A stretch of DNA of 64,000 nt from Gammaproteobacteria bacterium. Its GTDB lineage: Bacteria; Pseudomonadota; Gammaproteobacteria; JACCXJ01. Every line of letters starts with the position of its first letter. The stretch's first letter is position 1. Below the pieces are notes generated by a model that had not been told where the DNA came from, made no database searches, and saw only the letters and a list, made by a program, of their open reading frames with translations. The stretch is from assembly GCA_050740695.1 (NCBI GenBank), contig JBOIDR010000002.1, forward strand, positions 3,307 to 67,306, read 5' to 3'. This document shows, one piece after another, positions 1 to 29,112 of the stretch. The translations under genes were made by a program, and so were the position numbers.

Positions 1-710
1 AGATAGACGAGGACTATCGCAAACGCAAACAGGTATTCTCCGGCGTACAGGTGTGGGCGATCGGTCAGTTGATGGCGGTGGAGAGGTTCCTGAAATTGCT
101 GGCCAGCCCCAAGTATCGGGGCATCGGCCCGTGGCCGGAGCTGGCGTTCTATGATTGCCACGCCTGCCACCACCCGATGAGCGATCGGCGCTGGCGGCCA
201 CGCGAGCTGACCCGTGCGCTCGGGCCCGGCGTGGTGCGGCTCAACGACGCCAATTTCCTGATCCTGAGCCAGATAGCGGGCCGACTCGCCCCCGATCTCG
301 GTGAGCGCTTCAAGCGTGCCGTCGAAGACCTGCACCAGGCGACGGTAAAGGACCAGGCCTCGGTGCAGGCCGCGGCCGCCCGGCTCGGCGAGGTGACGGC
401 GAACCTGCGCGGGATCCTGGTCCAGCACAGCTTCTCCGCCGCCGACATGAAGGCGATGTTGCAAGTCATGGCGAGCCAGGGGGCCTCCGGAGAGTACAAC
501 GACTACGGGGCTGCGGAACAGGCCGTGATGGCGATGGCGTCGATCAAGGACGTGCTCGAAGAGACCGGGTCGTTGACGGCGGGCGAGAAGGCCGATCTCA
601 CGGCGCTCATGAGCAGGCTCTACGCGGTCCTCGAAGACCCCGATAAGTATCGGCCCGAGCAGCTGTCGGCGGTTCTCCAAACCCTGGCGGGTCGGACCCC
701 GAGGTCGTGA
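1..710 (+). CDS. Partial ORF, 5' end outside window. Hypothetical protein with one CxxCH (heme c-binding) motif, possibly a c-type cytochrome.
   Basis: The reading frame is open from the window start; the listed ORF begins at GTG at position 51 with no upstream stop. It contains DCHACHH (CxxCH). No other recognisable domain. Confidence 0.4.
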   Translation, partial: IDEDYRKRKQVFSGVQVWAIGQLMAVERFLKLLASPKYRGIGPWPELAFYDCHACHHPMSDRRWRPRELTRALGPGVVRLNDANFLILSQIAGRLAPDLGERFKRAVEDLHQATVKDQASVQAAAARLGEVTANLRGILVQHSFSAADMKAMLQVMASQGASGEYNDYGAAEQAVMAMASIKDVLEETGSLTAGEKADLTALMSRLYAVLEDPDKYRPEQLSAVLQTLAGRTPRS

Positions 711-776
711 CGTCTCCATGGCCATCGGGATCCGATCGGGACCTATTAGAAAACCGGCACGGCACCCGTCCCCCGC

Positions 777-3209
777 ATGGCGGCAAAAGCCTATAAGATA
801 GCGGTCATCGGTGCCGGCCCGGCGGGACTGAGCGCGGCTGCGCGGGCCGCCGAGGTCGGGGTTTCGCACGTCCTCCTGGAGGCCGCGCCACACCTCTCCA
901 ATACCATCTATCGCTATCAGAAGGGCAAGCTGGTAATGGCGGAGCCCACCGTCCTGCCCTTGCGCAGCAGCATCGGTTTCGAAGCCGGCTCGCGCGAGCG
1001 CGTGCTGTCGGTGTGGGATGAGGCCAAAGAACGGCTGCGCGTCAATGTGCGGCATGGGGCCGAGGTCGCGGTCGTCGGGGGGGCACCAGGCAACTTCAGC
1101 GTGAGCCTCACCGGCGGCGAGGTCGTGAACGCCGAGTTCGTGGTGCTGGCAACCGGCCTGCAAGGCAACTTGCGCAAGCTCGGTGTGCCCGGGGAAAACC
1201 TGCCCTTCGTGCAATATCAGCTCGACGACCCGGACGAATACGAGAACGAGACCATCGTCGTGGTCGGGGCCGGGGACTCCGCCATCGAGAACGCCGTCGC
1301 GCTGTCCGCGCACAACAAGGTTGTCGTTATCAACCGCCGTGATGATTTCGACAAGGCAAAAGAAGGCAATCGCAACGGAATCGAGCGGGCCATCCAGGAC
1401 GGCGTCATCGAGTGCCTCTATAACACCGCCCCGGTGCGGGTCGAGGCGGCCTCCGGCCGGAACGGGAAACCGGGTGTCCTGGTCGTCAAGACGGCGAGCG
1501 GCGAGGTGGCACTGGACTGCGATCGCGTCATCGCGCGCCTAGGCGCCATGCCGCCCCGGAAGTTCGTCGAGTCCTGCGGGATCGAGTTTCCCAACGATGA
1601 CCCGAACGCCGTGCCGGCCGTCAGCGCCCAATATGAATCCAATGTCCCGGGCCTTTACATCATCGGTGCGCTGGCCGGTTATCCGCTCATCAAGCAGGCC
1701 ATGAACCAAGGCTATGAGGTGGTCGAGTTCATCGACGGCCGGGCCATCGAGCCGGCCGACGAACCGGTGTTGCGCGACAAGTTCCGCGCCGTGGTCGAGA
1801 TCCGCAGCGTGGCCTCGGCCCTGGAAGTCATCAAGAAGAACGTCCCGGTCCTATCGGGCCTGACCACCTTGCAGTTGCGCGAGTTTCTGCTCGACAGCGC
1901 GATCCGGGCGCCGAAACGCGGCGAGGTCCTGTTCGAGCGCAATGATTACTCGGATAGCTTCTTTTCGATCGTGCGCGGCGGGGTCGATATCCATATCGAT
2001 CCGAACGACGCCTCCAAGCGCGTGGCTTTGACGAAAGGCGACTTTTTCGGCGAGATGGGCCTCATCTCCGGACGCCGCCGTAACGCCACGGTGACGGCGG
2101 GTGAGCGTTGCATCTTGATCGAGACACCGCGGCGTTCGATGAACAAGCTGATCAATTCGGTGGCCTCGGTCAAGGGTTTCATCGACGGCACCTTCCTGCG
2201 CCGCGCGATTCAATCGCAGATCGCGCCGGAGCTGCCCGCCGAGGCCCTGCGGGAGGTGGTGGCGAGCGCCCGCATCGAGCGCTTCGATGCCGGCAAGGTG
2301 TTGTTCAAGGAGGGCGATCCCGGGGACAGCCTGCACTTGATCCGCAAGGGCTCGGTCACCGTGGCGCGCGACATCGGGGGGCGGGAACGGGTGCTCTCCT
2401 ATGTGGCGGCCGGCAATTATATTGGAGAGATGGCGCTTTTGACCGACAGCCCCCGTTCCGCGACGGTGCGTGCGGCGATCGAAACGGAGACCATCCGGCT
2501 CGAAGGCGCGGCCTTCAAGGCCCTGCTCTCGCGTTGGCCGGATATCCAGGCCAAGATGCAGAGCAAGGCCCGGGATCTCTTGGCGGGGCAGTCGGTCAAG
2601 GTGCAAGAGACCCCCGAGGGCGCGGGCGATCTCATCTCCTTCCTGGTGAATCAAGGGGTCGGCGAAGCAACGGACGTGTTGCTCATCGACGAGACCCTGT
2701 GTGTGCGGTGCGATCACTGCGAAAAGGCCTGCGCCGAAACCCATGGCGGTACCTCGCGCCTGGACCGCGAGGCCGGACCGACCTTCGCGTACATCCATGT
2801 TCCGACCTCGTGCCGACACTGCGAGCACCCGCACTGCATGAAGGACTGCCCGCCGGATGCCCTGCGCCGGGCACCCAATGGCGAGGTCATTATCCTGGAC
2901 AGTTGCATCGGTTGCGGGAATTGCGAGACCAATTGCCCCTATGGCGTCATCCAGATGGCGGTGAAGGAAGAGCCGAAGCCCGTGAATCTCTTGTCGTGGT
3001 TCTTGTTCGGCAAAGGCAGGGCGCCCGGAGAGGAGATCTCCGCCCATCACGATGCCGGGGCAGCGAAGATAGCCACCAAGTGCGATATGTGTAAGGACCT
3101 GGCCGGGGGTCCCGCCTGCGTGCGGGCCTGTCCCACGGGCGCGGCGATACGCGTGAGCCCGGAACAGTTCCTGACGGTGACGCGCGGCACGACTCTCGAC
3201 AGGTCCTAG
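777..3209 (+). CDS. Multidomain redox protein. It has an N-terminal FAD/NAD(P)-binding pyridine nucleotide-disulfide oxidoreductase domain, two cyclic-nucleotide-binding (cNMP/CAP-like) domains, and C-terminal tandem 4Fe-4S ferredoxin-type dicluster domains.
   Basis: A GxGxxG Rossmann motif (VIGAGPAGLSAA) near the N-terminus, with a second dinucleotide motif VVGAGDSAIE. Two cNMP-binding signatures: FGEMGLISGRRRNATVTA and GEMALLTDSPRSATVRA. Four Cys clusters of CxxCxxCxxxC(P) type: CVRCDHCEKAC, CRHCEHPHCMKDCP, CIGCGNCETNCP, and CDMCKD...CVRACP. Confidence 0.7.
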   Translation: MAAKAYKIAVIGAGPAGLSAAARAAEVGVSHVLLEAAPHLSNTIYRYQKGKLVMAEPTVLPLRSSIGFEAGSRERVLSVWDEAKERLRVNVRHGAEVAVVGGAPGNFSVSLTGGEVVNAEFVVLATGLQGNLRKLGVPGENLPFVQYQLDDPDEYENETIVVVGAGDSAIENAVALSAHNKVVVINRRDDFDKAKEGNRNGIERAIQDGVIECLYNTAPVRVEAASGRNGKPGVLVVKTASGEVALDCDRVIARLGAMPPRKFVESCGIEFPNDDPNAVPAVSAQYESNVPGLYIIGALAGYPLIKQAMNQGYEVVEFIDGRAIEPADEPVLRDKFRAVVEIRSVASALEVIKKNVPVLSGLTTLQLREFLLDSAIRAPKRGEVLFERNDYSDSFFSIVRGGVDIHIDPNDASKRVALTKGDFFGEMGLISGRRRNATVTAGERCILIETPRRSMNKLINSVASVKGFIDGTFLRRAIQSQIAPELPAEALREVVASARIERFDAGKVLFKEGDPGDSLHLIRKGSVTVARDIGGRERVLSYVAAGNYIGEMALLTDSPRSATVRAAIETETIRLEGAAFKALLSRWPDIQAKMQSKARDLLAGQSVKVQETPEGAGDLISFLVNQGVGEATDVLLIDETLCVRCDHCEKACAETHGGTSRLDREAGPTFAYIHVPTSCRHCEHPHCMKDCPPDALRRAPNGEVIILDSCIGCGNCETNCPYGVIQMAVKEEPKPVNLLSWFLFGKGRAPGEEISAHHDAGAAKIATKCDMCKDLAGGPACVRACPTGAAIRVSPEQFLTVTRGTTLDRS

Positions 3210-3229
3210 GGACGAGCGGGGGACGAGCG

Positions 3230-4150
3230 GTGCACGAGTCGTTTCTGGCTTACCGCAAGTTCTTGTATCTCAAGCTCGGCTTGGGGCTCATCGTGCTCTC
3301 GATCCTGGCCTACGCGCTGCACGATCCGCCCCACGGCCCGAACGGGGGGACGTGGCTGGGCTATACCCTGGGCACCATCGGTGCCGGTCTCATTATCTGG
3401 CTGCTCTGGTACGGGGTCCGCAAGCGCCAGTATCACTCGAAGCTCGGCCAGGTGTCCGGGTGGCTGTCGGGCCATGTGTATCTCGGGTCGGCACTCTTGG
3501 TCGTCGCCACCCTGCATGCTGCATTCAAATTTGGCTGGAACGTGCATACCTTGAGTTACGTGCTCATGATCATGGTCATCGTGAGCGGTGCCTACGGGAT
3601 TTTTACCTATGTCCGGTATCCCACGCGCCTGACGGACAACAAGGGCGGCATGGCGATCGACGCCATGCTGAAGGAGATCGGCGATCTGGACGGGCAATGC
3701 CTCCGGATCGCGGCGGAGATGGGTGACAAGGTCCATCAGATGATCCTGCGCTCCATCGAACGCACTTCTTTCGGAAGGACTCCGTGGCGCGATGCGATGG
3801 GCGGTGTGGGCCAGGGGCTCGAGGACCTCGCCCGTGAGATCAAGTCCATCGCCGGTGACGCCCCGACACAGGCGCCGCTGCCGGCCGCCGCCGCGCCGGC
3901 CGCGGCCGGCGAGTCCACGGTGTACTTCGTGGCCGATCAATTCGCCAGTCTCCGCGACCGCGCCCAGGCCGCGCTGGGCCACCGCCTGCTCGACCTCATC
4001 ACCAGCAAAAAGGCCCTGGTGATCCGGGTGCAGCGCGATATCGTCTACCGCAAATTACTCAATTCCTGGCTTTATCTCCACCTGCCCTTGTCTATTGCGC
4101 TGCTCGCGGCCCTGACCGTTCACGTGGTCACGGTCTTCTTCTACTGGTAA
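3230..4150 (+). CDS. Integral membrane protein, hypothetical, with about six predicted TM helices.
   Basis: Several long hydrophobic stretches (LGLGLIVLSILAYAL, IGAGLIIWLLWYGV, ALLVVATL, LMIMVIVSGAYGIF, LPLSIALLAALTVHVV). GTG start 20 nt after the upstream stop. Same strand and tightly packed with its neighbours. Confidence 0.5.
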   Translation: MHESFLAYRKFLYLKLGLGLIVLSILAYALHDPPHGPNGGTWLGYTLGTIGAGLIIWLLWYGVRKRQYHSKLGQVSGWLSGHVYLGSALLVVATLHAAFKFGWNVHTLSYVLMIMVIVSGAYGIFTYVRYPTRLTDNKGGMAIDAMLKEIGDLDGQCLRIAAEMGDKVHQMILRSIERTSFGRTPWRDAMGGVGQGLEDLAREIKSIAGDAPTQAPLPAAAAPAAAGESTVYFVADQFASLRDRAQAALGHRLLDLITSKKALVIRVQRDIVYRKLLNSWLYLHLPLSIALLAALTVHVVTVFFYW

Positions 4151-4159
4151 GCGCCGTCG

Positions 4160-6046
4160 ATGCGTTGCCTGTTACGCGCCGTCGTCCGGAGGAGTCGAGG
4201 TGTCGTCTCCCATCAGGACCGAGGGTTCGAAGGCGAGCATCTCACCATCGGGCGGTCGACGGACCAGGACCTGGAGCTTCCGGACCTGCGCGTGGCCCTG
4301 CACCATGCCACGGTGGTCGCGGCGGGCGCCGGCCGTTTCGTGATCCAGTCGGCGGTGCCCTCCGGGATCCGTCACAACGACGAGCCCGTCCAATCCGCCT
4401 TCCTGGAAGTGGGCGATCAGGTGAGCATCGGCGATCACCGCATCACCGTGCGGCCTCCGGAGGGCGCTCATGAGCTCTGCCTGGAGATCGCGCAGGTGCG
4501 TGCCGATCCCGGCCAGGAGGTCGAGAAGCGCGTCGCGTCGGCCTCGGGCAGCGGCCCGGAAAAGGGCCTGCGCCTGGGCGTGCGCGGCTGGTCCTGGATC
4601 CTCGGCATGGCGATCCTCACGCTGTTCTTCGTCGTGCCGCTCGTCGCTCGCCAGTCGGAGGCGATCCAGGGGTTCCTGCGCGGGGTCATCCCTGGCGTGA
4701 GCGATCACGCGTGGAGCACCGGGGGGCTCACGGAGGGCCATCGGTATTTCGGCGACGACTGCAACAAGTGCCACGAACGGGCCTTCGTCTCGGTACGCGC
4801 GAGCGCCTGCGTCGAATGCCACAAGGACCAGCCGCATCACTTCGATGTCGAGCGTTTCAAGGTCCCGGCCCTCGCCGACAAGCAATGCGCCGCTTGCCAT
4901 AAAGAGCACGGCGGGGCGCCGGCCCTGACCCGGCAGGACGAGGGCCTGTGTCTCGACTGCCACCGCGATATGCAGGAGACGGCGGCGGATTCGAAGCTCC
5001 TGGACATCCGCGGGGGCTTCGCGGAGGACCACCCGGAGTTTCGCGCCACCTTCGTCACCCACACGGACGGAAAAGACCGGTCCGAGCGCATCGAAATCGA
5101 CCGGCGCATTGTCCCGAAGGAGCGCTCCAACCTGTTCTTCCCCCACAAGACCCATCTCGACAAGACCGGGGTCCAGGGGCCCGATGGCAAGGTGGTGCTG
5201 AGCTGCGCGAGCTGCCACGTCCCCGAACCAGGGGGACGGCTTATGGCGCCCATCCGCTTCGAGCAGCATTGCCATCGCTGCCACCAGCTCACCTTTGAGA
5301 TCGACGATCCGAAGCGCGAGGTGCCTCACGGCCATGTCGGTCGGGTGCTCGACGGCCTCGAGGCCTATTACGGCCTGCGTACCCTGGAACGGGCCGATAT
5401 CGATACCGGCGAGCCGGAGGTCCTGTCCCGGCGCCGCCCCGGGCGGCAGGCGGTCCCGCCGGAGCGCTCCGAGGGCCTGGAGAGTGCGGCGCGGCGGGCG
5501 CGGCAAGCGGGCAAGGAGCTTTTCGAGTATCGCGCCTGCGCGACCTGCCACCAGGTCGATGAGAAGGCCCAATCGGTCTTCGGGTGGGACATCGTGCCGG
5601 TGCGCATCGCCCGCACCTGGTACCCCAAGGCCGGCTTCGACCACGGCCGGCACGCCACGGTGGCCTGCGCGCGCTGCCATGGCTTCCGACCCGCCGATTG
5701 CGCCGCCTCTACATCGCCCCCCTCTACATCAAGTAGGGCGGTGGCGGATCCCGAGAAGGGCGCGGCCGATTGCAACAAGGGCGTGGCCGATTCCGAGAAG
5801 AGCGAGGATGTCCTCATCACCGGTATCGCGACCTGCCGGGAGTGCCATGGCGATCCCGGGGCAAAGGATCGGGTTCAGTCGACCTGCATCTTCTGCCACG
5901 ATTTCCATATCTCGCCGAGGTTCGCGATGGATGGCCGGGCGCGGACCAGACCGGGCGACCTAGCCCCCCCTCGGCAGGCGGCGGCGGTGCCGTCGGCCGA
6001 TCTCACGGATCTCCCGGCCGGCCAGGCGCGGATGGGGCAGCAGTGA
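4160..6046 (+). CDS. FHA-domain protein fused, through one TM helix, to a decaheme c-type cytochrome.
   Basis: The N-terminal roughly 110 aa match the FHA fold pattern (GRSTDQDLELPDLRVALHHATVV...DEPV...FLEVGDQVSIGDHRITV). There is one hydrophobic helix (WSWILGMAILTLFFVVPLVA). Ten CxxCH motifs follow: CNKCH, CVECH, CAACH, CLDCH, CASCH, CHRCH, CATCH, CARCH, CRECH, CIFCH. Confidence 0.65.
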   Translation: MRCLLRAVVRRSRGVVSHQDRGFEGEHLTIGRSTDQDLELPDLRVALHHATVVAAGAGRFVIQSAVPSGIRHNDEPVQSAFLEVGDQVSIGDHRITVRPPEGAHELCLEIAQVRADPGQEVEKRVASASGSGPEKGLRLGVRGWSWILGMAILTLFFVVPLVARQSEAIQGFLRGVIPGVSDHAWSTGGLTEGHRYFGDDCNKCHERAFVSVRASACVECHKDQPHHFDVERFKVPALADKQCAACHKEHGGAPALTRQDEGLCLDCHRDMQETAADSKLLDIRGGFAEDHPEFRATFVTHTDGKDRSERIEIDRRIVPKERSNLFFPHKTHLDKTGVQGPDGKVVLSCASCHVPEPGGRLMAPIRFEQHCHRCHQLTFEIDDPKREVPHGHVGRVLDGLEAYYGLRTLERADIDTGEPEVLSRRRPGRQAVPPERSEGLESAARRARQAGKELFEYRACATCHQVDEKAQSVFGWDIVPVRIARTWYPKAGFDHGRHATVACARCHGFRPADCAASTSPPSTSSRAVADPEKGAADCNKGVADSEKSEDVLITGIATCRECHGDPGAKDRVQSTCIFCHDFHISPRFAMDGRARTRPGDLAPPRQAAAVPSADLTDLPAGQARMGQQ

Positions 6047-6218
6047 TGGCGCCGTGTTGGCACGGAACCGGCCTTCCGGGGTATTTTCTGGTGCCGGTGA
6101 ATCTTTCGCGCTGGCGTGCTAACTTAGGGTGGGTGTCAGGGATCGAGCCGGACGGGCTCGAATGGGTTCCCGTATGGCGAATCGGCACTTGTTTCGGGTC
6201 TCGGGTCGAACTCGGTCG

Positions 6219-7013
6219 ATGAAGACTGCGGCGGATCCGCGCCTGTCGCCCGGGCTCAAGTGCCGGATAGACGCGAGTATCGCGACCGACACCGGTTGCC
6301 AGCGCGATCACAATGAGGACCACATCGACTTCTTCGCGGCCGATGACCCCGTGGTACGGAGCAGCAAGGGTGCCCTTGCGGTGGTCGCCGACGGTATGGG
6401 AGGGCACCTCGCGGGCGGTCTGGCGAGCGAACTGGCCGTCCAGGTCGCGCGCCGCACCTACTACCAGGAACCGGGAGAAGGCCGCAAGGCCCTAGAGACC
6501 GCCCTGCAGAGGGCGAACCGGGAGATCTATGAGCTGTCGCTCACGGACGAGGCCTATCATGGCATGGGGACCACGTGCACGGCGCTGGTGTTGACGGGAT
6601 CGCTCGCCCACTGCGCCCACGTCGGCGACAGCCGCCTGTATCTCATCCGCGACGGTCAGATCCGTCTGATGACGGAAGACCACTCCCTGGTTCGGGAGAT
6701 GGTCAAGGCCGGGATCCTGAGCCCCGAGCAGGCGCGCTCTCACCCCAACAGAAACGTGATCTCCAGGGCCTTGGGGGTGCGTCCCAGTGTCGATCTTTTC
6801 TTCTGGCAGGACCCCATGGAGCTCTGCGACGGCGATACCTTCGTCCTGTGTTCCGATGGCCTGCACGACCCCGTGCGCGAAGACGAGATCCTTGGTGTGT
6901 GCGTGGCAGAGGCGTCCGAGGCGGCGTGCCGGAGTCTGGTAGACCTGGCGAAACAGCGCGGCGGCCACGACAACATCAGCGTGGGGGTCTTCCGGGTGAG
7001 AGCCGAGGAGTGA
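6219..7013 (+). CDS. PP2C-family (PPM) Ser/Thr protein phosphatase.
   Basis: PPM motifs are present: DTGCQRDHNEDH, VVADGMGGH, GTTCTALV, LCSDGL, GGHDNISV. The start was chosen at MKTAADP; the ORF can also open at position 6129. Confidence 0.75.
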   Translation: MKTAADPRLSPGLKCRIDASIATDTGCQRDHNEDHIDFFAADDPVVRSSKGALAVVADGMGGHLAGGLASELAVQVARRTYYQEPGEGRKALETALQRANREIYELSLTDEAYHGMGTTCTALVLTGSLAHCAHVGDSRLYLIRDGQIRLMTEDHSLVREMVKAGILSPEQARSHPNRNVISRALGVRPSVDLFFWQDPMELCDGDTFVLCSDGLHDPVREDEILGVCVAEASEAACRSLVDLAKQRGGHDNISVGVFRVRAEE

Positions 7014-7048
7014 AAGGGCGGCGGCGCCGTGGGCCATAGATAGCCACC

Positions 7049-10000
7049 ATGATCAACGAAGTGATCGCCAACTGCTACCAGATCGTCGAGAAGATCGGCG
7101 AGGGTGGGATGGGGGAGGTGTTCCGGGGTGTGGACATCAACCTCGATCGCGATGTCGCCATCAAGGTCATGCGTACCGAGCTCGCCCGCCGGCCCGAGAT
7201 CCTCCAGCGTTTCCGCAAGGAAGCGGTCGTCCTAGCCAAGCTCAACCATTCCAATATCGCGACCCTCTACAACTTCATCCATGACGGTAACAACTATTAC
7301 ATGGTCATGGAGTTCGCGCCGGGTCAGACCCTCGACGTCCTCGTCGCGGATTGCGTCGGGGGGCTGCCGTGGCGATACGCGCTGGAGCTGTTCATGGATG
7401 CGCTCCGGGCCATCGACCACGCCCATAAGCAGGGCATCATCCACCGTGACATCAAGCCGGCCAACATGATGGTCAGCAAGCGCGATACCCTGAAGGTTCT
7501 GGACTTCGGGATCGCGCGCGTCCTGGGAGAATCCGGATTCACCAAGGCGGGCATCGTGGTCGGAACGACCAAGTACATGTCCCCCGAACAGATCCTCGGC
7601 CGCAGCATCGATACGCGTTCGGATATCTACGCGCTCGGGATCGTGCTCTACAAGATGCTCACCGGGCATGTGCCCTTCGAGGGCCTGGGTGAGTTCGAGC
7701 TCATGAAGGCGCAGGTCGAGGACCGCGCCCTGCCGGTACGCCAGATCATTCCGGATCTGCCCGAAGCGGTTGACGAGGCCATAATGCGGTCCCTGGAGAA
7801 GGCGCCGGAAGACCGATTTCAGCGGGCCTCCGAATTCATTGCCGCATTGGTGCCGATACTGCGCGACGATGTTGCCGACTGGGAGTCGCACCGCAGAGAC
7901 TTGCGCGACCAGGAGTCGGGCCCGCGTGCGCCTCGGCAGCGGGGCGGGCAGAAACGCCCGGTGGTCATCGACGGCAACCTGGCGCGCAAGCAGGCCGAGA
8001 TGCCCACTTCGAGCAGCCGCAGCGGGCTCATGGACGATGCCTATCAGCCACCTCCCCGTCAGGCCTCCCCCCGTCAGATGCCGACCCGTCAGTCCACCCC
8101 GGCCCCGAGGCTCGAGGTGGTTCGCACGCCGGTGCCGGCGAGCGCGTCCCAGGTGCCGACGCAGGCTTTGGACACGCGGGTCGCAGCGGAGATCACACCT
8201 CCGCTGCGACCACGCGTCCCGGTGACGGCCGAGGCCGGGGCCACCACGGTCGATGAGCCGTCCATCTTTGGGACCCGGGTCGGGACGAAGGTCATGGGGA
8301 CCGGGAAACCCGTCGCACCGCCCACACCCTCGTGGCGTGCCCGGATCGGTGAGGGGTTGCGGCCGGTCTTGGGATGGCTGTCGCGGCTCGGATGGCGGCG
8401 CGTCGCGGGTGCCGCGCTGGGACTCGCCGTACTGGCGGGCGTATCGCTGGGGGTCCGTGAGCTGATGCGACCTCCCGATCCTGAGGAGATCGCGCTGTGG
8501 CTCGCACAGGCGAAGCAGGCGCTGGCGGCGGGGAAGGTTGGGCCCGGAGACACGGCCGTGTCTCTGGCACAGGATGTCTTGAAATGGGTACCGGACCACG
8601 GCGAAGCGAGAGACGTCGTGCTCGCGGCGGTCGCCCGTCTCGTGAGCGCCGGCCAGTCGGCGCTCCAACAGGGCAAACTGAGCGACGCGAAAGCGCGGCT
8701 TGCCGAGGCGGAGACTTTGGTCAGGGACCCCGCGCTGGAGAACCCTAAGCTGGACAAGCGCAGTGTGGCGGCGCTCGCGGGCGGTATCGCCGCCGAGGAG
8801 TCGCGGCGCACCGCGATCGAAAGAGCAGAACGGGAGAAAGCGGAACGGGAACGCCGTATCGGCGAGCTGATCGCGGCCTCGCGGGCGGCGCTTGCGTCGG
8901 AGAAGTTCGCGGAGGCCGCGGCGCGAGCCCAGGAGGTCTTGGGCCTGGTGCCGGACCAGGCCGAGGCGCGCCAGATCCTCGACGATGCGCTCCAAGGGGC
9001 GCTCAAGGGCATGGAAGAGGCGCTCGCCCGCGGCGATCTTGCAGCGGTCGGCGCCCGTGAAGCGGAGGCGCGTGCCCTGGTGCAGCAGTACGGTCTACCC
9101 GAGGCGAAGCTCAACGACTTGGCCGCACGGCGCGCTAGAGAAGCGCAGCGACAGGCCGAGGAAGAGGAACGCCTGGCGGGGCAGAAGCGCGCCGTGGAAG
9201 AGCGGACGGCGCGTGTCCGGGGGCTGCTGGACAAGGCGCAGGCGGCCGCCGAGGCGGGCCGCTGGACGGTCCCGCCCGAGGACAGCGCCGTCGGGTATGC
9301 GGGGGCGGTCCTGGGCCTCGAACCCAAGAGCACCGAGGCCTTGCGGGTGATCGGCGATGCCGTCGATGCCGTGGTCGATGAGGCCGATGGTGCGCTCGGG
9401 GCCGGTGATATGGCAACGGCCAAGGCCCGGCGTGACGCGGCCGCGAAACTGGCCTCCACCTACCAGGTGCCGAGCCAGAGCATCGCGAAGCTGTCCGAGC
9501 GGATCACCGAGGCCGAACGTCTAGCCCGCGAGGCAGAGGACGAGGCCGCGCGCCTTGCCCGCGAGACGCAAGAGAAGAAAGCGGCGCTGGTGGCCCGCGA
9601 AGCGAAAATCGAGGATCTGATCGAAAAGGCCACTCGGGCCATCGCCCAGGACCGCTTGACGGCGCCCGCGAACGACAACGCCATGAAACACGTACGCGAT
9701 CTGGTCAGCCTGGATCCGGGGAACGTAGAGGCGCAGGGCCTTGCTGCCGGGGTGCGCGACCGTTACATTGCACTGGCCGACAAGGCCGTGGCCGATGCCC
9801 ACTTCACAAAGGCTCGTGATCTCGAGCGCCAGGCGGGCGAGATCGCCTCCGAGTTTCGCCTGAGTGCCGACCCGATCCGTGATCTCGCGGCCCGGATCGC
9901 GGCCGCCGAGGACAGCAATGCGAGCGCCGTGATCGAGTCGCGCGAAAAAGCCGAGCGCGACAGGGCGGCAGAAGAAAGGCTGACGCAGCAGAAGGCTGAG

Positions 10001-10540
10001 GAGGCTCGGGCGGAACGCGACAGGCTGGAGCGAGAAAAGCTCGCCCGGCAGAATGCGGAGCAGGGGGAGGCCCGCCGCCGCGAGCAGCAGCTCGCGGATC
10101 TACGCAAGAAGGCGAGGTCGGCGCTGGCCGGCAACCGGCTGACCCGTCCCCGGGGTAACAACGCCGTGGAGCTTGCCGCCCAGATGCTTACCCTGGATAA
10201 AGGCCGCAACGAAGGCCTTCAGATCCTCCAAGAGGTGGTAGGCCGCTATGTGGCGATGGGTGAGCTGGCCGTCGCCGGCGAGGATCTCGCGGTGGCGGAC
10301 GATCATTATCGGGCCGCCGAGCGCGTCGTGAAGGATTACCGGTTGCCGGACGCGGAACTTCGTCGGCTGGATCGGCGTCTTACGGCCAAACGACAAGAGA
10401 TCGCCGAAGTGGAACGGCGTGCGCGTGATAAGCGGACGCCGATCGTCTCGTCGCCGCCCGCGGAGGTTTCGCCCCCGGCGGATCCGCCGAAGAAAGCGGA
10501 CGGGGGGAGGTCGAGAGTATTCGTGCCCCCTTCGTTCTAG
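7049..10540 (+). CDS. Hanks-type Ser/Thr protein kinase. It has one TM segment and a very long C-terminal extracytoplasmic Ala/Glu/Arg-rich coiled-coil region, with roughly 38-aa repeats, that ends in FVPPSF.
   Basis: Kinase subdomains: GxGxxG-like EKIGEGGMGEV, VAIK, HRDIKPANM, DFGIA, SPEQ. A hydrophobic segment (AALGLAVLAGVSLGV) at about aa 450. Repeats of the RLTxPxxNNA...L.L.PG..EA..L...V..RY type occur at least three times. Confidence 0.8.
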   Translation: MINEVIANCYQIVEKIGEGGMGEVFRGVDINLDRDVAIKVMRTELARRPEILQRFRKEAVVLAKLNHSNIATLYNFIHDGNNYYMVMEFAPGQTLDVLVADCVGGLPWRYALELFMDALRAIDHAHKQGIIHRDIKPANMMVSKRDTLKVLDFGIARVLGESGFTKAGIVVGTTKYMSPEQILGRSIDTRSDIYALGIVLYKMLTGHVPFEGLGEFELMKAQVEDRALPVRQIIPDLPEAVDEAIMRSLEKAPEDRFQRASEFIAALVPILRDDVADWESHRRDLRDQESGPRAPRQRGGQKRPVVIDGNLARKQAEMPTSSSRSGLMDDAYQPPPRQASPRQMPTRQSTPAPRLEVVRTPVPASASQVPTQALDTRVAAEITPPLRPRVPVTAEAGATTVDEPSIFGTRVGTKVMGTGKPVAPPTPSWRARIGEGLRPVLGWLSRLGWRRVAGAALGLAVLAGVSLGVRELMRPPDPEEIALWLAQAKQALAAGKVGPGDTAVSLAQDVLKWVPDHGEARDVVLAAVARLVSAGQSALQQGKLSDAKARLAEAETLVRDPALENPKLDKRSVAALAGGIAAEESRRTAIERAEREKAERERRIGELIAASRAALASEKFAEAAARAQEVLGLVPDQAEARQILDDALQGALKGMEEALARGDLAAVGAREAEARALVQQYGLPEAKLNDLAARRAREAQRQAEEEERLAGQKRAVEERTARVRGLLDKAQAAAEAGRWTVPPEDSAVGYAGAVLGLEPKSTEALRVIGDAVDAVVDEADGALGAGDMATAKARRDAAAKLASTYQVPSQSIAKLSERITEAERLAREAEDEAARLARETQEKKAALVAREAKIEDLIEKATRAIAQDRLTAPANDNAMKHVRDLVSLDPGNVEAQGLAAGVRDRYIALADKAVADAHFTKARDLERQAGEIASEFRLSADPIRDLAARIAAAEDSNASAVIESREKAERDRAAEERLTQQKAEEARAERDRLEREKLARQNAEQGEARRREQQLADLRKKARSALAGNRLTRPRGNNAVELAAQMLTLDKGRNEGLQILQEVVGRYVAMGELAVAGEDLAVADDHYRAAERVVKDYRLPDAELRRLDRRLTAKRQEIAEVERRARDKRTPIVSSPPAEVSPPADPPKKADGGRSRVFVPPSF

Positions 10541-10620
10541 ATTATTACAGAACTTCAAACTGTACGAGACGAATTCGACGATGTAGAAGTCCCTTCTCTC
10601 GCGGGGGGAGACAGGTTAGG

Positions 10621-11457
10621 ATGAGGGAATTTCCAATGTGTTTCAATAGATTCAGCTTGTTTCGAGGTCTCTGCATGACCATTATGTCAATTAATGTCCG
10701 GCGCGGAATGCTCGCGTGGGTATTCGTGCTCGCGGCTTACCCGGGGCTCTCCGCGGGCGCCGAACAGAAGCGCCCGGCTCCATCCGCTCGCATTGCAGCG
10801 ATTCTCGTCCAGGCGGAGCGCGCCCTGGCGGAGGATCGGCTCACCCTGCCCTCGGGCCATAATGCCGTCTCCTATGCCCAAAAGGTGCTGGACCTCGCGC
10901 CCGGCCACCCCGCAGCCCAAGGGATCCTTCGCGCCGTTGTCACACGCTACGGGCTCATCGCCGGTGCCGCTCTGGACCGGGCCGAGGCGCTGAGGCGTCA
11001 GGAACTAGCCAGGGCGCAGGCGTATCGATCGCGAGGGGAGGGCGTGGCGCATCGGTTCAATCTTAGCACGGTGCCCTTGAGTGCCGTCGCGGAGCGCATG
11101 GATGGCGTGAAGGCTCGTCCCCATGGGACGAGCGTGGTGGATAATTCAACGATCATTATCGGGCAACGCCAGCCCCCGGCGGACCGAGTGCTCGACCGAC
11201 TGGTCGGCAAGTACCTATATGAGAGTGAGATCGCACTGGAGGGTGGCCGGGTGCACGATGCCCGGCGCTACTGGGAGGTCGCCGCTCAGATCGCGATGGA
11301 TCACCGGGTTTCGAATCCGGGCCTCGACGGGCTCGAGCGCCGTGTCGCCGCGGCCGAGCAGGAACGGGACGAGGGCCGGGTCCGGGCGCGTGAGGACGCC
11401 CGCCTTTCTGCGCAGGGCCGGTTGCTCAAGGCCGTATTCATTCCGCCCAGCTTTTAG
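10621..11457 (+). CDS. Secreted or periplasmic repeat-domain protein. It shares the repeat module and the C-terminal FIPPSF motif with the upstream kinase. The start may be internal (MSINV...).
   Basis: Signal-peptide-like MLAWVFVLAAYPGLSAGA. RLTLPSGHNAVSYAQKVLDLAPGHPAAQGILRAVVTRYG matches the kinase repeats. The protein ends ...VFIPPSF, and the kinase ends ...VFVPPSF. Confidence 0.5.
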   Translation: MREFPMCFNRFSLFRGLCMTIMSINVRRGMLAWVFVLAAYPGLSAGAEQKRPAPSARIAAILVQAERALAEDRLTLPSGHNAVSYAQKVLDLAPGHPAAQGILRAVVTRYGLIAGAALDRAEALRRQELARAQAYRSRGEGVAHRFNLSTVPLSAVAERMDGVKARPHGTSVVDNSTIIIGQRQPPADRVLDRLVGKYLYESEIALEGGRVHDARRYWEVAAQIAMDHRVSNPGLDGLERRVAAAEQERDEGRVRAREDARLSAQGRLLKAVFIPPSF

Positions 11458-12510
<1,053 letters not shown>

Positions 12511-12552
12511 GAGGTTGTGAAAAACCGTCGCGAGCGACTGCACGGGCGTGGG

Positions 12553-13962
<1,410 letters not shown>

Positions 13963-13976
13963 GATTTCGAGCCATA

Positions 13977-15020
13977 TCAGAGAGTGGGCAGGCGGACCGT
14001 GAAGCGTGTCTCGCCCGGTTTGGAGGTGAATTCGATGAGCCCTCCGTGGCCGTAGATGAGGGCCTGGGCGATCGAGAGTCCGAGGCCGGTGCCGCCGACC
14101 CGGCCGCTGACCATGGGGTAGAAGATATCGTCGCGGACTTCCGCGGGAACGCCCGGCCCATCGTCGATGATGTCGATGCGGATCACCGTCCGGTAGCGGT
14201 TGACGCCGATGGTGACCTGGCGATCGGCGCGCGTCCTCAACAGCACCTTTCCAATCCCGCACAGGGCCTGCCCGGCGTTGCGCACCACATTGAGGAAGGC
14301 CTGGATCAACTGGTCGCGGTCAGCGAGCAGCGCCGGCAGGCTCGGATCGTAGTCCCGCTCCACCGTCAAGGTGGGCGGACCCTCGGCGCTCACCAAGGTG
14401 CGCACGTGCTCCAGGACCTCGTGGATGTTGATGGTGCGTTTGTGCGGACGGTAGTTCGGCACCAGCATGCGGTCCACGAGACCGCGCAGCCGGTCCACCT
14501 CGTCGACGATGAGGCGGGTGTACTCGGCGTATTCGGGCAGCTCGCTTTCGAGCAGTTGTGCCGCTCCGCGGATCCCGCCCAGCGGGTTCTTGACCTCATG
14601 GGCCATGCCCTTGAGCATGGTGCGAATGGCGTTCTGCTGGTTGGCCACGGCCTCGTCGCGCAGCACGCGACGGTAACGATCGGCATTGCTCATCTCGACC
14701 AGGATGTGCGATACCCGGGTGCCCTGGAACAGCGGGGCGGCCGTGAAATCGAGTGAGATCCTCGTGCCCCAGGGGGTCGTAAGGTCCACACCCCATTCGG
14801 TCACCGCCTGTCCACTGGCCTGCACGCGTTCCAGGGCAGTGGCGAGCGCGGTGTCCCGAAACAGTTCGTCGGGGGCACGCCCGAGCACCTTGCGCGCGCT
14901 CGCCGACAAGAGATGCTCGCCGGCGGCGTTGATGAGCGTTAGTCTGGCCTCGTGATCGAACAGCAGCACGGCGGTGCAGAGATTATCGACCAACCAGCCC
15001 GCCTGAGCGTGCTCGATCAT
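13977..15020 (-). CDS. glnL: Nitrogen regulation sensor histidine kinase NtrB (NR-II).
   Basis: PAS-like N-terminus, H-box HEVKNPLGGIRGAAQLL, and HATPase motifs (DDGPGVP, GGTGLGL). It lies immediately upstream of ntrC on the same strand. Confidence 0.85.
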   Translation of the reverse strand: MIEHAQAGWLVDNLCTAVLLFDHEARLTLINAAGEHLLSASARKVLGRAPDELFRDTALATALERVQASGQAVTEWGVDLTTPWGTRISLDFTAAPLFQGTRVSHILVEMSNADRYRRVLRDEAVANQQNAIRTMLKGMAHEVKNPLGGIRGAAQLLESELPEYAEYTRLIVDEVDRLRGLVDRMLVPNYRPHKRTINIHEVLEHVRTLVSAEGPPTLTVERDYDPSLPALLADRDQLIQAFLNVVRNAGQALCGIGKVLLRTRADRQVTIGVNRYRTVIRIDIIDDGPGVPAEVRDDIFYPMVSGRVGGTGLGLSIAQALIYGHGGLIEFTSKPGETRFTVRLPTL

Positions 15021-15232
15021 ACCCCCTCTCCCTACAAAGCACCACGCCGGTGCGTGGCCTTACGCACCATGATGCTCGCCTCTAGGATTAGATAGAGTAC
15101 CAAATCGTGGGGTTACGTTGGCCCGGGCGGCTCATGCCGGTGCGGCGTTAACGTGTAGGCGGCAAAATCCACACCACGCGATGGGAGTGTGCCCCACCAC
15201 GACGCCGGTTGGGACCGGATTAAAGCGTTCGG

Positions 15233-15952
15233 TTACGGCATGCCGGGGGCGCCAGGCGGCACTGCCGGGGTTGCGGGAGGCGCCCCAGGGGGTGCTGCCG
15301 GGGCTCCTGGGGCTACGGAGATGCGCTTCATGTGGAAGACCGAGGGCGGTGATTCACCCAGCACCTTGCCATCCGCATCCACGATGCGCGCCTGCAGAGT
15401 GTAGGTATTGCGATCGAGGTTGGTCACCGTGAAGCTGGTGGCGGCGATCGGCTCACCCAGTGCTTGCCCGTTGAGCAAAACCACAAGCTTGTGGCCCAGC
15501 GTGCCCTGCAGCGCCGGCGCCACAGCGACCTCGATGGACACGTTGCCGGAGTTGTCCCACACCGTGCCGTCATTGGGCGGGTTGGCGACCGCGATCTTGT
15601 CGTATCCTGCGAAGCGAGGCGCAGCCGGGTCCGAGGGCGCCGGATCACCGGCCGGTGTGGGTGCCGGTGCCGGGGCGGCCGGCGCCTTGGGGATCCGGAT
15701 CACCTGTGCATTCGGTCGGGGCCGATCGGAATACTGGGTGTTGCCGTCGGGATCGACCCATCGGTAGACCTCCGCGGCGGGCGAGACCGCGCTCCAAAGC
15801 CCTAGACACAAGACCAGCCAATGCACGCAGGGAGCATAGACAAGCGCGCGGCGCGGGGCAAGGCTCGCCCCGGCGTGGTGGGCGCCCGTTGCCGGCCCCC
15901 CCGTGCCGCGGAAGGCTCGCATCGGAGAGGTGTGCGCACCGATGATGTGCAT
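15233..15952 (-). CDS. DUF4124-family secreted protein with a Pro/Ala-rich linker. The exact start is uncertain.
   Basis: Signal-like LVLCLGLWSAVSPAAEVYRWVDPDGNTQYSD is a typical DUF4124 N-terminus. A P/A-rich spacer is followed by a C-terminal domain. Confidence 0.5.
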   Translation of the reverse strand: MHIIGAHTSPMRAFRGTGGPATGAHHAGASLAPRRALVYAPCVHWLVLCLGLWSAVSPAAEVYRWVDPDGNTQYSDRPRPNAQVIRIPKAPAAPAPAPTPAGDPAPSDPAAPRFAGYDKIAVANPPNDGTVWDNSGNVSIEVAVAPALQGTLGHKLVVLLNGQALGEPIAATSFTVTNLDRNTYTLQARIVDADGKVLGESPPSVFHMKRISVAPGAPAAPPGAPPATPAVPPGAPGMP

Positions 15953-16021
15953 TGGCGGTCCGCGCGCACCATCCTTGCCGTGATGGTCCTTGCCGTGATA
16001 GCCAGAGGCGCTGGCCGACGC

Positions 16022-17269
16022 CTAGGCTCGCGGGATCACCTCTCCGCTCATGAGGTCCTGTACGGTTCCGCGGTGGCCGACCAGATGGATGCGCGCGCCG
16101 TCCACCAGGACCTCGGCGGCGCGCGGCCTTGTGTTATAGGTCGAGCTCATGGAGGAGCCATAAGCCCCCGCGGTACAGACGGCCAGGACATCGCCGGAGG
16201 AGAGGTTCAGAGCGCGCCCCGAGCCGAGAAAGTCGCCCGATTCACACACCGGCCCGGCGATCTCATAGCGGCGCTCGGGACCCGGGCGGCGTTCGACCGG
16301 TACGATGTCGTGCCAGGCGTCGTAGAGCGCGGGCCTCACCAGATCGTTCATGGCGGCATCGACGATGGCGAAATGCTTCTCTTCCACGTCCTTCAGGTAT
16401 TCGACGCGCGTCAGGAGCACGCCGTTCGGCCCCACGACCGCGCGTCCCGGCTCGGTGATGACCGAGAGCGGCGTGCCGCCCAGGCGGCTGAGGACGGCGT
16501 GCGCGTAGGCCGCGGGTGTCGGCGGCGATTCCTCGCGGTAGCGGATGCCGAGCCCACCGCCGATATCGATATGCCTCAATGCGATGCCTCGTGCATCGAG
16601 CCGTGCCACGAGGCCGAGGATCTGGTCCAGGGCCTCGAGCACGGGATCGAGGCGGGTGAGCTGCGAGCCGATGTGCACGGCGATCCCGCGCACCTCCATA
16701 TACGCCAGGTCCATGGCTTCTGCATACACGGCCTCGGCCTCCCGCGCCGGGATGCCGAACTTGTTGGCGTTGGTGCCGGTGGCGATGTAGGGGTGGGTCT
16801 TCGCATCGACATCGGGGTTGACGCGGATCGCCACCGGTGCGCGCACGCCGAGGGGAGACGCGATCTGATGGAGGCGCCTCAGCTCCGGCAGGGATTCGAT
16901 GTTGAAGCAATGGATCCCGACTTCCAGGGCGCGCAGCATTTCATCAGCGCGCTTGCCGACCCCCGAAAACACGACCTTTCCCGGGTCTCCCCCGGCACTG
17001 AGGACGCGCTCGAGCTCACCCCCCGAGACAATATCGAAACCAGAGCCCAGGCGCGCCAGGAGGTTCAGGACGGCGAGGTTGCCGTTGGCCTTGACGGCAT
17101 AACAGACGAGATGCGGATGGCTGCCGAAGGCGCTGTCGAAGGCGCGCCAGGCGCCCTCGATCCCGCTCCGCGAATAGACGTAACACGGGGTCCCAAACTC
17201 CTCGGCAATGGCCGTGAGCGCTACCCCTTCGACGTAGAGCACGCCGTTACGGTAAGAGAAGGGTTTCAT
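16022..17269 (-). CDS. lysA: Diaminopimelate decarboxylase.
   Basis: MKPFSYRNGVLYVEGVALTAIAEEFGTPCYVYS...VCYAVKANGNLAVLN matches the LysA PLP-fold family. The start is set at the internal Met (415 aa), not at ORF-track position 17485. Confidence 0.85.
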   Translation of the reverse strand: MKPFSYRNGVLYVEGVALTAIAEEFGTPCYVYSRSGIEGAWRAFDSAFGSHPHLVCYAVKANGNLAVLNLLARLGSGFDIVSGGELERVLSAGGDPGKVVFSGVGKRADEMLRALEVGIHCFNIESLPELRRLHQIASPLGVRAPVAIRVNPDVDAKTHPYIATGTNANKFGIPAREAEAVYAEAMDLAYMEVRGIAVHIGSQLTRLDPVLEALDQILGLVARLDARGIALRHIDIGGGLGIRYREESPPTPAAYAHAVLSRLGGTPLSVITEPGRAVVGPNGVLLTRVEYLKDVEEKHFAIVDAAMNDLVRPALYDAWHDIVPVERRPGPERRYEIAGPVCESGDFLGSGRALNLSSGDVLAVCTAGAYGSSMSSTYNTRPRAAEVLVDGARIHLVGHRGTVQDLMSGEVIPRA

Positions 17270-28592: not shown

Positions 28593-28705
28593 ATGGTCAC
28601 TTGGACTGGTCAGTGGAAATAGATCTGGGAGTTGGTCTTATCGGGCAGTATGGTCCTGAAGCGGAAAAGAGTCAAGGAGCCGGATGGACGCAAGGCCGTC
28701 TGCGG

Positions 28706-29062
28706 CTACTTCTCGCGACGTCGCCGGAGCGGAGAAACGGAACGGTTCATCGTGTACCTCATAAAAGCCGGGCTCCTGCCCGTTCGGTTCAGGCCGCCCA
28801 TCGGAAGAACGGAGGCCGGTAGCCCGAGGGAGAGGCGGAAGCGTTTGACAGGGCGCAGCCTTCCTTGAGCGCAGTGCGGGCAGCGTTTGGGGTGGGTTCC
28901 GAGGATCCGAACGAGGAACGCTTCGACGGTTTCCGGTTCGCGCGGTGCGGGAATGGAGACATCGAGGGCGAGCCGACAGGAGTGTCGGATCCGCATGAAG
29001 CCCTTGGGGAGCAAGTGGAGCAGAAATCGACGGATAAACTCCTCGACCGGGAGGCGCATCAC
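28706..29062 (-). mobile_element. IS91-family (HUH Y2) transposase fragment covering the C-terminal approximately 115 aa only.
   Basis: FIRRFLLHLLPKGFMRIRH...KRCPHCAQG matches the conserved C-terminal region of IS91-family transposases. The N-terminal catalytic part is absent. It abuts the repeat at 29113. Confidence 0.5.
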
Positions 29063-29112
29063 CTTCCCTTTTTTGCGATGAGCGTAGTCCCGCCAACGGA
29101 AACGGAGCGAAT

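Follow-up and report, generated by a model that had tools for sequence, protein, structure and literature searches.

Introduction

The ptdABCDEFG operon has been described bioinformatically in Alphaproteobacteria of ocean oxygen-deficient zones and reported in Gammaproteobacteria among other groups, and its function has been called 'completely unknown' (bioRxiv 10.1101/2023.11.21.568154). In Ferrigenium straubiae, the gene for NHC, a nonahaem cytochrome with a cytosolic FHA domain, adjoins those for a protein with five transmembrane helices and for a cytosolic [4Fe-4S] protein (bioRxiv 10.64898/2026.01.22.701106). Both preprints assign these genes to a putative multihaem electron-transfer complex (10.1101/2023.11.21.568154; 10.64898/2026.01.22.701106). 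Here we analyse a cluster of this kind in a 64,000-nucleotide stretch of a gammaproteobacterial genome (GenBank assembly GCA_050740695.1, contig JBOIDR010000002.1, positions 3,307 to 67,306; hereinafter the window). It encodes an 810-residue fusion of a flavoprotein, two cyclic nucleotide monophosphate (cNMP)-binding domains and an iron-sulfur (FeS) domain, followed by a membrane protein with four candidate haem-ligating histidines and by an anchored decahaem cytochrome c. The fusion protein is probably the cytoplasmic, NAD(P)H-fed and cNMP-regulated head of a three-protein electron wire across the inner membrane.

The literature searched on the fusion or its cluster yields only these two preprints, neither with biochemistry, and the fusion belongs to a kind that is described from genomes only and is uncharacterised. 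The cluster itself has already been noticed in both, its function left unexplained. What is added here is the count of four predicted clusters in the FeS domain, the fused NAD(P)H flavoprotein without redox cysteines, the four histidines that argue for a di-haem cytochrome b, the finding that the cNMP cassettes are strongly conserved, and the short and fused sister architectures.

The gene order in the window equals that of PtdD-E-F-G (tetrahaem cytochrome, cNMP/FeS protein, ferric-reductase-like transmembrane protein, decahaem cytochrome), a likeness drawn from gene order and published description, no accession for PtdE, PtdF or PtdG having been found in the preprint text and supplements. For PtdE that preprint counts two clusters and mentions no flavoprotein domain, whereas the window fusion has 16 invariant cysteines, the pattern of four clusters, and a domain of the thioredoxin reductase (TrxR) fold. 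The pentahaem PtdA, the porin PtdB and the flavohaemoprotein-like PtdC of the ptd operon have no counterpart in the window cluster, which instead carries genes for a PP2C-type phosphatase and a kinase downstream. No multihaem open reading frame (ORF) beyond the cluster's own lies within the 64 kb, and in the 95%-identical relatives L004 and L005 (L numbers are our handles for loci) housekeeping genes lie upstream of the gene for the PtdD-like, c554-like cytochrome.

The NHC cluster resembles the window in its inner-membrane-anchored multihaem cytochrome c with a cytosolic FHA domain, its five-helix membrane neighbour and its cytosolic [4Fe-4S] protein; NHC has nine haems, against ten in the window decahaem. 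The Ferrigenium authors saw 'no redox motif' in the five-helix protein, whereas its window counterpart has four invariant histidines and a weak match to the cytochrome b family PF01292. They favour an inward flow from Fe(II) to quinone, and the cNMP and flavin domains go unmentioned there.

CbcL and CbcBA of Geobacter sulfurreducens appear to be the closest characterised analogues of the membrane half, compared here by design: each joins a di-haem cytochrome b to a periplasmic cytochrome c with nine haems. Both are menaquinol-fed and, unlike the window system, have no cytoplasmic FeS/flavoprotein subunit, cNMP domains or FHA domain. Formate dehydrogenase-N (FdnH/FdnI) and [NiFe]-hydrogenase with its cytochrome b, of the PF01292 family, pair a four-cluster ferredoxin-like subunit with a di-haem b membrane anchor that bears histidine pairs on its transmembrane helices. 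Their FeS subunit is periplasmic and their electrons pass to quinone; the window FeS domain, by contrast, is predicted to be cytoplasmic, because the protein has no signal peptide and the domain is joined to a flavoprotein for NAD(P)H. Across the membrane from it lies a decahaem cytochrome c. Eukaryotic NADPH oxidase/ferric reductase and bacterial MsrQ-type systems carry electrons from NADPH through a flavin and two stacked haems b to an acceptor outside, an overall design that the proposed window wire would share. The window wire would differ from them in a TrxR-type rather than ferredoxin-NADP+ reductase (FNR)-type flavoprotein, in an interposed FeS chain with cNMP domains, and in a multihaem cytochrome as acceptor in place of O2 or MsrP.

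Domain architecture of the fusion protein

The fusion gene and the parts of its product are as follows.

777..3209, + strand: 810-residue fusion protein; ATG start, cytoplasmic, without signal peptide
792..1712, + strand (residues 6-312): FAD/NAD(P)H domain of the low-Mr TrxR fold (Pfam, Foldseek)
1899..2186, + strand (about residues 375-470): cNMP-binding domain A, one of two Pfam cNMP_binding stretches
2043-2090, + strand (residues 423-438): phosphate-binding cassette A, FFGEMGLISGRRRNAT
2277..2531, + strand (residues 501-585): cNMP-binding domain B, the best Pfam cNMP_binding stretch
2418-2474, + strand (residues 548-566): phosphate-binding cassette B, YIGEMALLTDSPRSATVRA
2679..3173, + strand (residues 635-799): HycB/HydN-type ferredoxin domain with four Cys motifs and four predicted [4Fe-4S] clusters

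From N to C terminus the order is flavoprotein, cNMP-binding domain twice, four-cluster [4Fe-4S] domain. An earlier note, made from the sequence alone, had proposed this fusion and this order of domains, and both are borne out by Pfam, whose Pyr_redox, cNMP_binding and Fer4 models all match. The same note had called the fusion unusual, which is right in that the family is unstudied and wrong as to rarity: a word-indexed search retrieved proteins of about 800 residues in more than 120 clusters (90% identity), 62-95% identical to the fusion and with an equal set of Pfam domains. An exhaustive search of 50%-identity representatives listed about 44 that span the full length, at 31-61% identity. 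With homologues that number in the thousands, the fusion is neither rare nor unique; it is a member of an unstudied, widespread family. The closest GenBank protein is 95% identical, NCBI names the homologues 'cyclic nucleotide-binding domain-containing protein', and the cultured Tahibacter soli (GCA_025717065.2, locus L001) is among the carriers.

Residue conservation in this long form was read from 35 diverse representatives at 31-61% identity. The window fusion has 20 cysteines, 16 of which lie in the four FeS motifs, and the remaining four are not conserved.

The flavoprotein domain

Residues 6-312 are matched by Pyr_redox_3 (E 7e-32) and Pyr_redox_2 (E 2e-27) in Pfam. Both Rossmann motifs of the low-Mr TrxR fold, GxGxxG for FAD and GxGxxA for NAD(P)H, are present, and GxGxxG (for FAD; GAGPAG in the window) and GxGDSAxE (GAGDSA in the window) are conserved in the 35 representatives. 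Foldseek places YpdA/Bdr first (7a76/7a7b, E 3e-25, target TM-score 0.79), followed by TrxR-type FNRs and TrxR, with target TM-scores of 0.6-0.8 for the flavin domain against TrxR, FNR and YpdA; the N-terminus finds the same three groups, YpdA/Bdr, TrxR and TrxR-type FNR, among PDB sequences. The stretch NRRDDF appears to resemble the NADPH-binding HRRDxF of TrxR.

Could the fusion be a thioredoxin or bacillithiol-disulfide reductase? The ranking of its relatives speaks for this, the best NCBIfam match being TIGR04018 (YpdA; E 3e-37) and the best fold match YpdA/Bdr, and JGI names of homologues include 'thioredoxin reductase'. The scores themselves fall far short of family membership, at 128 bits against a cut-off of 340 for YpdA and 73.8 against 343 for TrxR (TIGR01292). 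More directly, the residues for such chemistry are missing: YQLDDP of the fusion aligns with YCAVCDG at the disulfide site of TrxR 7aaw, and GAGPAGL aligns with GGGPCGL of YpdA, so that the position of YpdA Cys14 is an alanine. A CxxC at the TrxR position or a cysteine at the Cys14 position was found in none of the 35 representatives, and the four cysteines outside the FeS motifs are, as noted above, not conserved. The flavoprotein is therefore not a disulfide reductase; with CxxC and the Cys14 equivalent both missing this function was ruled out, and we give it next to no credence. The fold of a pyridine-nucleotide disulfide oxidoreductase, which the earlier note had assigned, stands, and the redox-active disulfide that the name implies does not. 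At the level of fold and alignment, a TrxR fold without CxxC fits a TrxR-type FNR.

The iron-sulfur domain

Several Fer4 dicluster models of Pfam match residues 672-789, and residues 635-799 align to HydN and to the N-terminus of AegA in NCBIfam. Among PDB sequences the domain matches HycB of formate hydrogenlyase (7z0s_B, E 8e-17) and HycB3/4 of HDCR (7qv7). The HydN equivalog model gives 51 bits against a cut-off of 260, which places the similarity at the level of the domain only.

The domain contains four cysteine motifs, in order CxxCxxCxxxC (residues 642-652), CxxCx4CxxxCP (679-691), CxxCxxCxxxCP (710-720) and CxxCx8CxxxCP (769-785). When conservation of the cysteine clusters was tested, all 16 cysteines were kept in every homologue aligned, that is, in the 35 long-form representatives and in 78 relatives of a short form described below. 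This pattern is the signature of four predicted [4Fe-4S] clusters. HycB, HydN and AegA share the cysteine motif pattern and a likeness in sequence with the fusion, as TrxR-type FNRs share the fold and the missing CxxC, but neither group has cNMP domains or a four-histidine partner, and the fusion scores far below the equivalog cut-offs.

The cyclic nucleotide-binding domains

Tested against the cNMP_binding profile (PF00027), the cNMP-like regions match in two stretches with E 9.9e-39 and 131.6 bits, well above the gathering threshold of 27.5. Residues 343-596 align as a tandem to CNB-A and CNB-B of PKA-R and PKG among PDB sequences (E 2e-27 to 1e-15), and domain A is a beta-sandwich in the AlphaFold2 (AF2) model (predicted local distance difference test, pLDDT, about 85). 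PKA-R and PKG share with the fusion the tandem CNB-A/CNB-B arrangement and canonical cassettes; their output is a kinase, that of the fusion an oxidoreductase.

Both phosphate-binding cassettes of the window protein are canonical, A reading FGE...RNAT and B reading GE...RSAT (consensus GE...R[ST]A). In cNMP-binding domains the Gly-Glu and the Arg-[Ser/Thr]-Ala of this cassette touch the ribose and the cyclic phosphate. Canonical cassettes are also found in about 20 of the 35 long-form representatives, and in the short form they are near-invariant, the arginine and the glutamate of cassette A each being kept in 76 of 78 sequences and those of cassette B each in 77 of 78. Such retention points to strong selection on the cNMP cassettes.

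The four-histidine membrane protein

The fusion gene is flanked by the genes of three further members of the cluster.

3..710, + strand: c554-like multihaem cytochrome c (PtdD-like), secreted; C-terminal 235 residues, the gene being cut by the window start
3230..4150, + strand: 306-residue PtdF-like membrane protein with five transmembrane helices, a probable di-haem cytochrome b
4160..6046, + strand: 628-residue PtdG/NHC-like protein with an FHA-like domain (residues 23-99), a transmembrane helix (residues 141-166) and a periplasmic decahaem cytochrome c

The 306-residue protein has no Pfam match above threshold. Across 60 homologues at 43-87% identity, five histidines are invariant: His82, His96, His106, His284 and His298. 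In the AF2 model His82 and His96 lie on the helix 75-97, the third transmembrane helix, and His284 and His298 on the terminal helix, the fifth, both pairs with i, i+14 spacing; between the His-bearing helices a cytoplasmic helical insert of about 145 residues is predicted (pLDDT 82). Two stacked haems b are classically held by histidines at i, i+14 on two helices. The 306-residue protein likely binds two haems b, and a positive-inside topology suggests one histidine pair near each membrane face. PF01292, the prokaryotic cytochrome b561/Ni-hydrogenase cytochrome b family, matches 51 of the 60 homologues weakly (E<=0.1, best E 4e-7).

The resemblance to PF01292, a quinone-reactive di-haem b family, opens an alternative in which the four-histidine protein and the decahaem cytochrome form a quinol:cytochrome c oxidoreductase like CbcL or CbcBA, fed from the quinone pool. 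The fusion would then be a regulatory valve: responding to NAD(P)H/NAD(P)+ and to cNMP, it would poise or lock the haem b on the cytoplasmic side and carry no bulk flux. The precedent is concrete, Geobacter CbcL being a menaquinol-oxidising di-haem b fused to a nine-haem c, and numerous uncharacterised clusters of cytochromes b with multihaem cytochromes c exist. The heavy signalling load of the window cluster, with two cNMP domains and an FHA-like domain, would also suit a valve. A quinone site, however, could not be identified, and four invariant [4Fe-4S] motifs make a chain of wire length, beyond what a sensor needs. The variation in architecture across lineages bears on this alternative from both sides.

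Short forms and sister families

A short form of 446-511 residues consists of the two cNMP domains and the FeS domain, without the flavoprotein. At its loci the membrane protein recurs as a homologue (E 1e-17 to 1e-25), together with a transmembrane-anchored cytochrome that has 6-10 haems and no FHA. Other forms swap the flavoprotein for a 2Fe-2S NuoG-like domain plus extra Fer4, or for Fer4 alone. A sister flavoprotein, 29-37% identical over residues 6-330, has an N-terminal 2x[4Fe-4S] domain and adjoins a four-histidine membrane homologue in Gemmatimonadota, Acidobacteriota, Nitrospirota, Bacteroidota and others. The sister-flavoprotein loci almost always adjoin cytochromes with 16-58 CxxCH motifs. 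The same histidine pairs recur in the membrane partners of both the short-form and the sister-flavoprotein loci; in short-form partners they are found at 84/98 and 213/227, at 78/92 and 249/263, and at 76/90 and 237/251. Weak Ferric_reduct matches occur in the membrane partners of the sister class (E 0.001-0.5).

In Planctomycetota the sister flavoprotein and the four-histidine membrane protein are fused in one polypeptide. The single polypeptides measure 758-854 residues (L027, 9422-11695; L033, 9311-11872; L038, 5345-7675): those of L027 and L033 contain the 2x[4Fe-4S] domain and the TrxR-fold flavoprotein, those of L027 and L038 the C-terminal four-histidine transmembrane domain, with no Fer4 match in L038 and no match of the membrane hidden Markov model (HMM) in L033. 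All three adjoin cytochromes with 22-26 haems.

The conserved core comprises the two cNMP domains with four FeS clusters, the four-histidine membrane protein and the anchored multihaem cytochrome c, and the TrxR-fold flavoprotein is one of several electron-input modules. For the quinol-fed alternative, the short forms without a flavoprotein mean that NAD(P)H is not an obligatory donor. Against it, the N-terminal input modules are swapped among lineages, as expected of electron donors. On this evidence we consider a quinol-fed wire with the fusion as its valve unlikely, and retain the NAD(P)H-fed wire as our working explanation for the long form.

Giant multihaem ORFs were also seen next to the sister flavoprotein, with 58 CxxCH motifs in L045 (2-6847, - strand), 37 in L030 (12618-15773) and 34 in L031 (15641-18997, - strand). 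A four-histidine homologue is present in L030 and L031, and none was detected in L045.

The cytochromes and the conserved neighbourhood

In the 628-residue protein Pfam finds FHA (PF00498; E 1.4e-5, 25.9 bits against a cut-off of 20.7) together with cytochrome c7/c3 models, and its ten CxxCH motifs are all conserved. The FHA-like domain is kept in all 18 distinct long-form loci that carry a protein of this type (20 sequences, two of them near-duplicates). In these loci it keeps the Gly-Arg, the His and the N/D-G of the family, while the phosphothreonine-binding Ser of SxxH is replaced by A, T, L or V. As a side observation, the FHA-like domain (window 4226-4456) also gives a sub-threshold Pfam match to the YscD-type cytoplasmic FHA.

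The c554-like frame is open from base 3 and contains one CHACH motif in the window. Its product matches the 450-residue c554-like protein of L004 (phmmer E 1e-150), and full-length orthologues have four CxxCH motifs and one Cx3-4CH, a signal peptide and a Pfam Cytochrome_C554 match. The gene adjoins the fusion gene in the window and in L002, L004/L005, L009, L013, L014 and L090.

From base 3 to 11457 every gene lies on the + strand, with gaps of 9-82 bp. Operon structure is read from this same-strand spacing only, a promoter and terminator scan of bases 1-12600 giving no signal above shuffled expectation. Synteny was followed in loci from genomes and metagenomes, whose six-frame ORFs were searched with HMMs built here. 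Fusion, four-histidine membrane protein and anchored FHA-multihaem cytochrome c follow one another in this order in 19 of 20 assessable loci, which span Gamma- and Alphaproteobacteria, Acidobacteriota and one Chloroflexota-labelled bin. Most genomes add an HbpS-like lipoprotein, a secreted protein of about 600 residues and a secreted LVIVD-repeat decahaem cytochrome of about 1240 residues. The lipoprotein has about 680 residues and three HbpS-like domains; the protein of about 600 residues has no Pfam match and is possibly a porin. This three-gene module was seen in L001 (15452-22412), L002 (15175-22415), L007, L008, L011-L019, L032 and L090, and is absent from the entire 64-kb window and from the relatives L004/L005. 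In its place stand two other genes.

6129..7013, + strand: PP2C-type Ser/Thr phosphatase (Pfam PP2C_2, E 5e-17)
7049..10540, + strand: 1163-residue Hanks-type Ser/Thr kinase (Pfam Pkinase, E 8e-53) with a transmembrane helix (residues 451-473) and a repeat-rich C-terminal region

Only in the window and in L004/L005 does the phosphatase/kinase pair adjoin the cluster, taking the place of the three-gene module. The earlier note had taken the fusion for a plausible ligand-gated electron-transfer protein encoded by the first gene of a signalling cluster. The setting does not hold up: the conserved partners of the fusion are the four-histidine protein, the decahaem and the c554-like cytochrome, and the signalling genes are a lineage-specific replacement, not conserved context. 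With kinase and phosphatase as lineage-specific neighbours, the signalling-cluster reading was rejected. Ligand-gated electron transfer, a reading in keeping with the canonical cassettes, stays plausible.

A transmembrane redox sensor, in which the periplasmic redox state would be reported to the FHA-like domain, the kinase and phosphatase and the cNMP system with negligible electron throughput, is an alternative close to that signalling-cluster reading. The cluster does contain cNMP-binding and FHA-like domains, the PP2C phosphatase and receptor-type Ser/Thr kinase follow immediately downstream in the window lineage, and L089 has a kinase-cyclase fusion close to its orphan copy of the 810-residue protein's gene. 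But adjacency of kinase and phosphatase is confined to the window lineage, the FHA-like domain is without its canonical phosphothreonine-binding Ser, and the second decahaem, the c554-like cytochrome and the secreted module of most genomes amount to an investment in cofactors typical of bulk electron transport. We regard a pure sensor as improbable. Since the canonical Ser is missing, the link of the FHA-like domain to the neighbouring kinase and phosphatase is itself uncertain.

Proposed mechanism

From the observed domains, residue conservation, synteny and gene fusions we infer which cofactors the NAD(P)H-fed wire carries, how its proteins meet, which way electrons run, and that a nucleotide binds and gates it. 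NAD(P)H, probably NADPH, would reduce the FAD of the TrxR-fold domain, and electrons would leave the FAD singly, because that domain has no redox cysteines. They would enter the HycB-like C-terminal domain and travel along its four [4Fe-4S] clusters; this domain may dock on the cytoplasmic face of the five-helix protein, with one haem b near each membrane face. From the haems b they would pass to the anchored decahaem cytochrome c, then to the soluble c554-like cytochrome and, in most other genomes, onward to the secreted LVIVD decahaem module.

The tandem PKA-R-like cNMP domains, placed between flavin and FeS chain, could serve as an allosteric switch: binding of cAMP or cGMP would shift the flavin domain relative to the first cluster and so turn electron flow on or off. 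In the window lineage the FHA-like domain of the decahaem protein may give the PP2C/kinase pair a second point of control. It makes sense for such a wire to be tightly regulated, since NAD(P)H electrons that are exported without entering the quinone pool cost the cell reducing power and membrane potential. The full proposal, a cyclic-nucleotide-gated transmembrane wire in which a second messenger binds the FeS/flavin head and switches the export of NAD(P)H electrons to periplasmic or extracellular cytochromes, is put forward tentatively, as a possibility short of a probable one.

On standard redox potentials, outward flow should be downhill from NAD(P)H and helped by the membrane potential. 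In the opposite direction, electrons from periplasmic or extracellular donors, such as Fe(II) by way of outer-membrane cytochromes, would cross the decahaem, the haems b and the FeS chain to arrive at NAD(P)+ or the quinone pool. Something similar was suggested in the Ferrigenium preprint, in whose proposal NHC connects Fe(II) oxidation with the inner membrane (10.64898/2026.01.22.701106), and a chain of such cofactors is reversible in principle. Donors at the level of Fe(II) are, however, far more positive than NAD(P)+, and inward electrons would oppose the membrane potential in what is a simple wire without a driving force, as thermodynamics suggests. The carriers also include lineages of heterotroph type, among them Tahibacter and Lysobacter-related bins. 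Inward uptake is accordingly given a very low probability, and the outward, NAD(P)H-fed wire is kept.

Several points weigh against this outward wire and its gating. The window 306-residue protein itself falls below the PF01292 threshold (12.6 bits against 30.1), its model has no significant fold match in the PDB (best Foldseek E 0.18, to the TorS sensor, all-helical noise), and a profile search with the alignment of the 306-residue protein against PDB sequences returned nothing relevant. Cytochromes b of the PF01292 type, such as those of Geobacter CbcL and CbcBA, are usually quinone-reactive, which makes quinol a possible true source of electrons for the haem wire. AF2 models the FeS domain unreliably (pLDDT <50), and the model gives no geometry between flavin and clusters or between clusters and membrane. 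As to gating, the cassettes are degenerate in about 15 of the 35 long-form representatives, the most divergent ones, and nucleotide gating therefore cannot be universal; a search with one query, the L089 kinase-cyclase, found no cyclase gene in the 64-kb window. L089 itself, with a fusion protein 76% identical to that of the window, has no membrane or haem partner within 10 kb and is the sole exception among the 20 loci.

If the wire operates as proposed, many soil, freshwater and marine bacteria, among them Xanthomonadales-type Gammaproteobacteria, Alphaproteobacteria, Acidobacteriota and Nitrospinota, would own an electron exit in the inner membrane that bypasses the quinone pool under the control of cyclic nucleotides. 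It would be a new type of inner-membrane component for extracellular electron transfer, beside CymA, ImcH and CbcL, and a functional bacterial counterpart of a regulated NADPH oxidase. cAMP or cGMP would gain a direct bioenergetic target in bacteria, and extracellular electron transfer its first post-translational control by a second messenger. The proposal could also explain clusters that two recent studies flagged as highly expressed or conserved, yet left unexplained, in nitric-oxide-transforming ocean bacteria and in nitrate-reducing Fe(II) oxidisers.

Other features of the window and related loci

The same-strand run that begins with the c554-like gene contains one further gene.

10621-11457, + strand: 278-residue protein, following the Ser/Thr kinase

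The C-terminal half of the kinase (8400-10540) and the 278-residue protein share RLTxPxxxNA repeats and a C-terminal motif, ...VFVPPSF in the kinase and ...VFIPPSF in the 278-residue protein (phmmer E 1.3e-19). The two look like a receptor kinase with a related secreted partner.

The orphan copy of the fusion gene in L089 lies in a region of TIR-domain and toxin-antitoxin genes. An 873-residue protein is encoded 2 kb downstream of it (14546-17167), combining a Ser/Thr kinase, TPR-S and a weak guanylate-cyclase match.

Directly after the window cluster comes hemB (11521-12510), for porphobilinogen synthase of haem biosynthesis, a neighbour that is also found in L004 and may be a coincidence. 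Beyond hemB the opposite strand (12553-15020, - strand) encodes an NtrC-type sigma-54 response regulator and a PAS histidine kinase. Elsewhere in the window, G+C falls to 0.57 at 28001-30000 and to 0.53 at 54001-56000, against a background of about 0.65; these two stretches could be acquired DNA.

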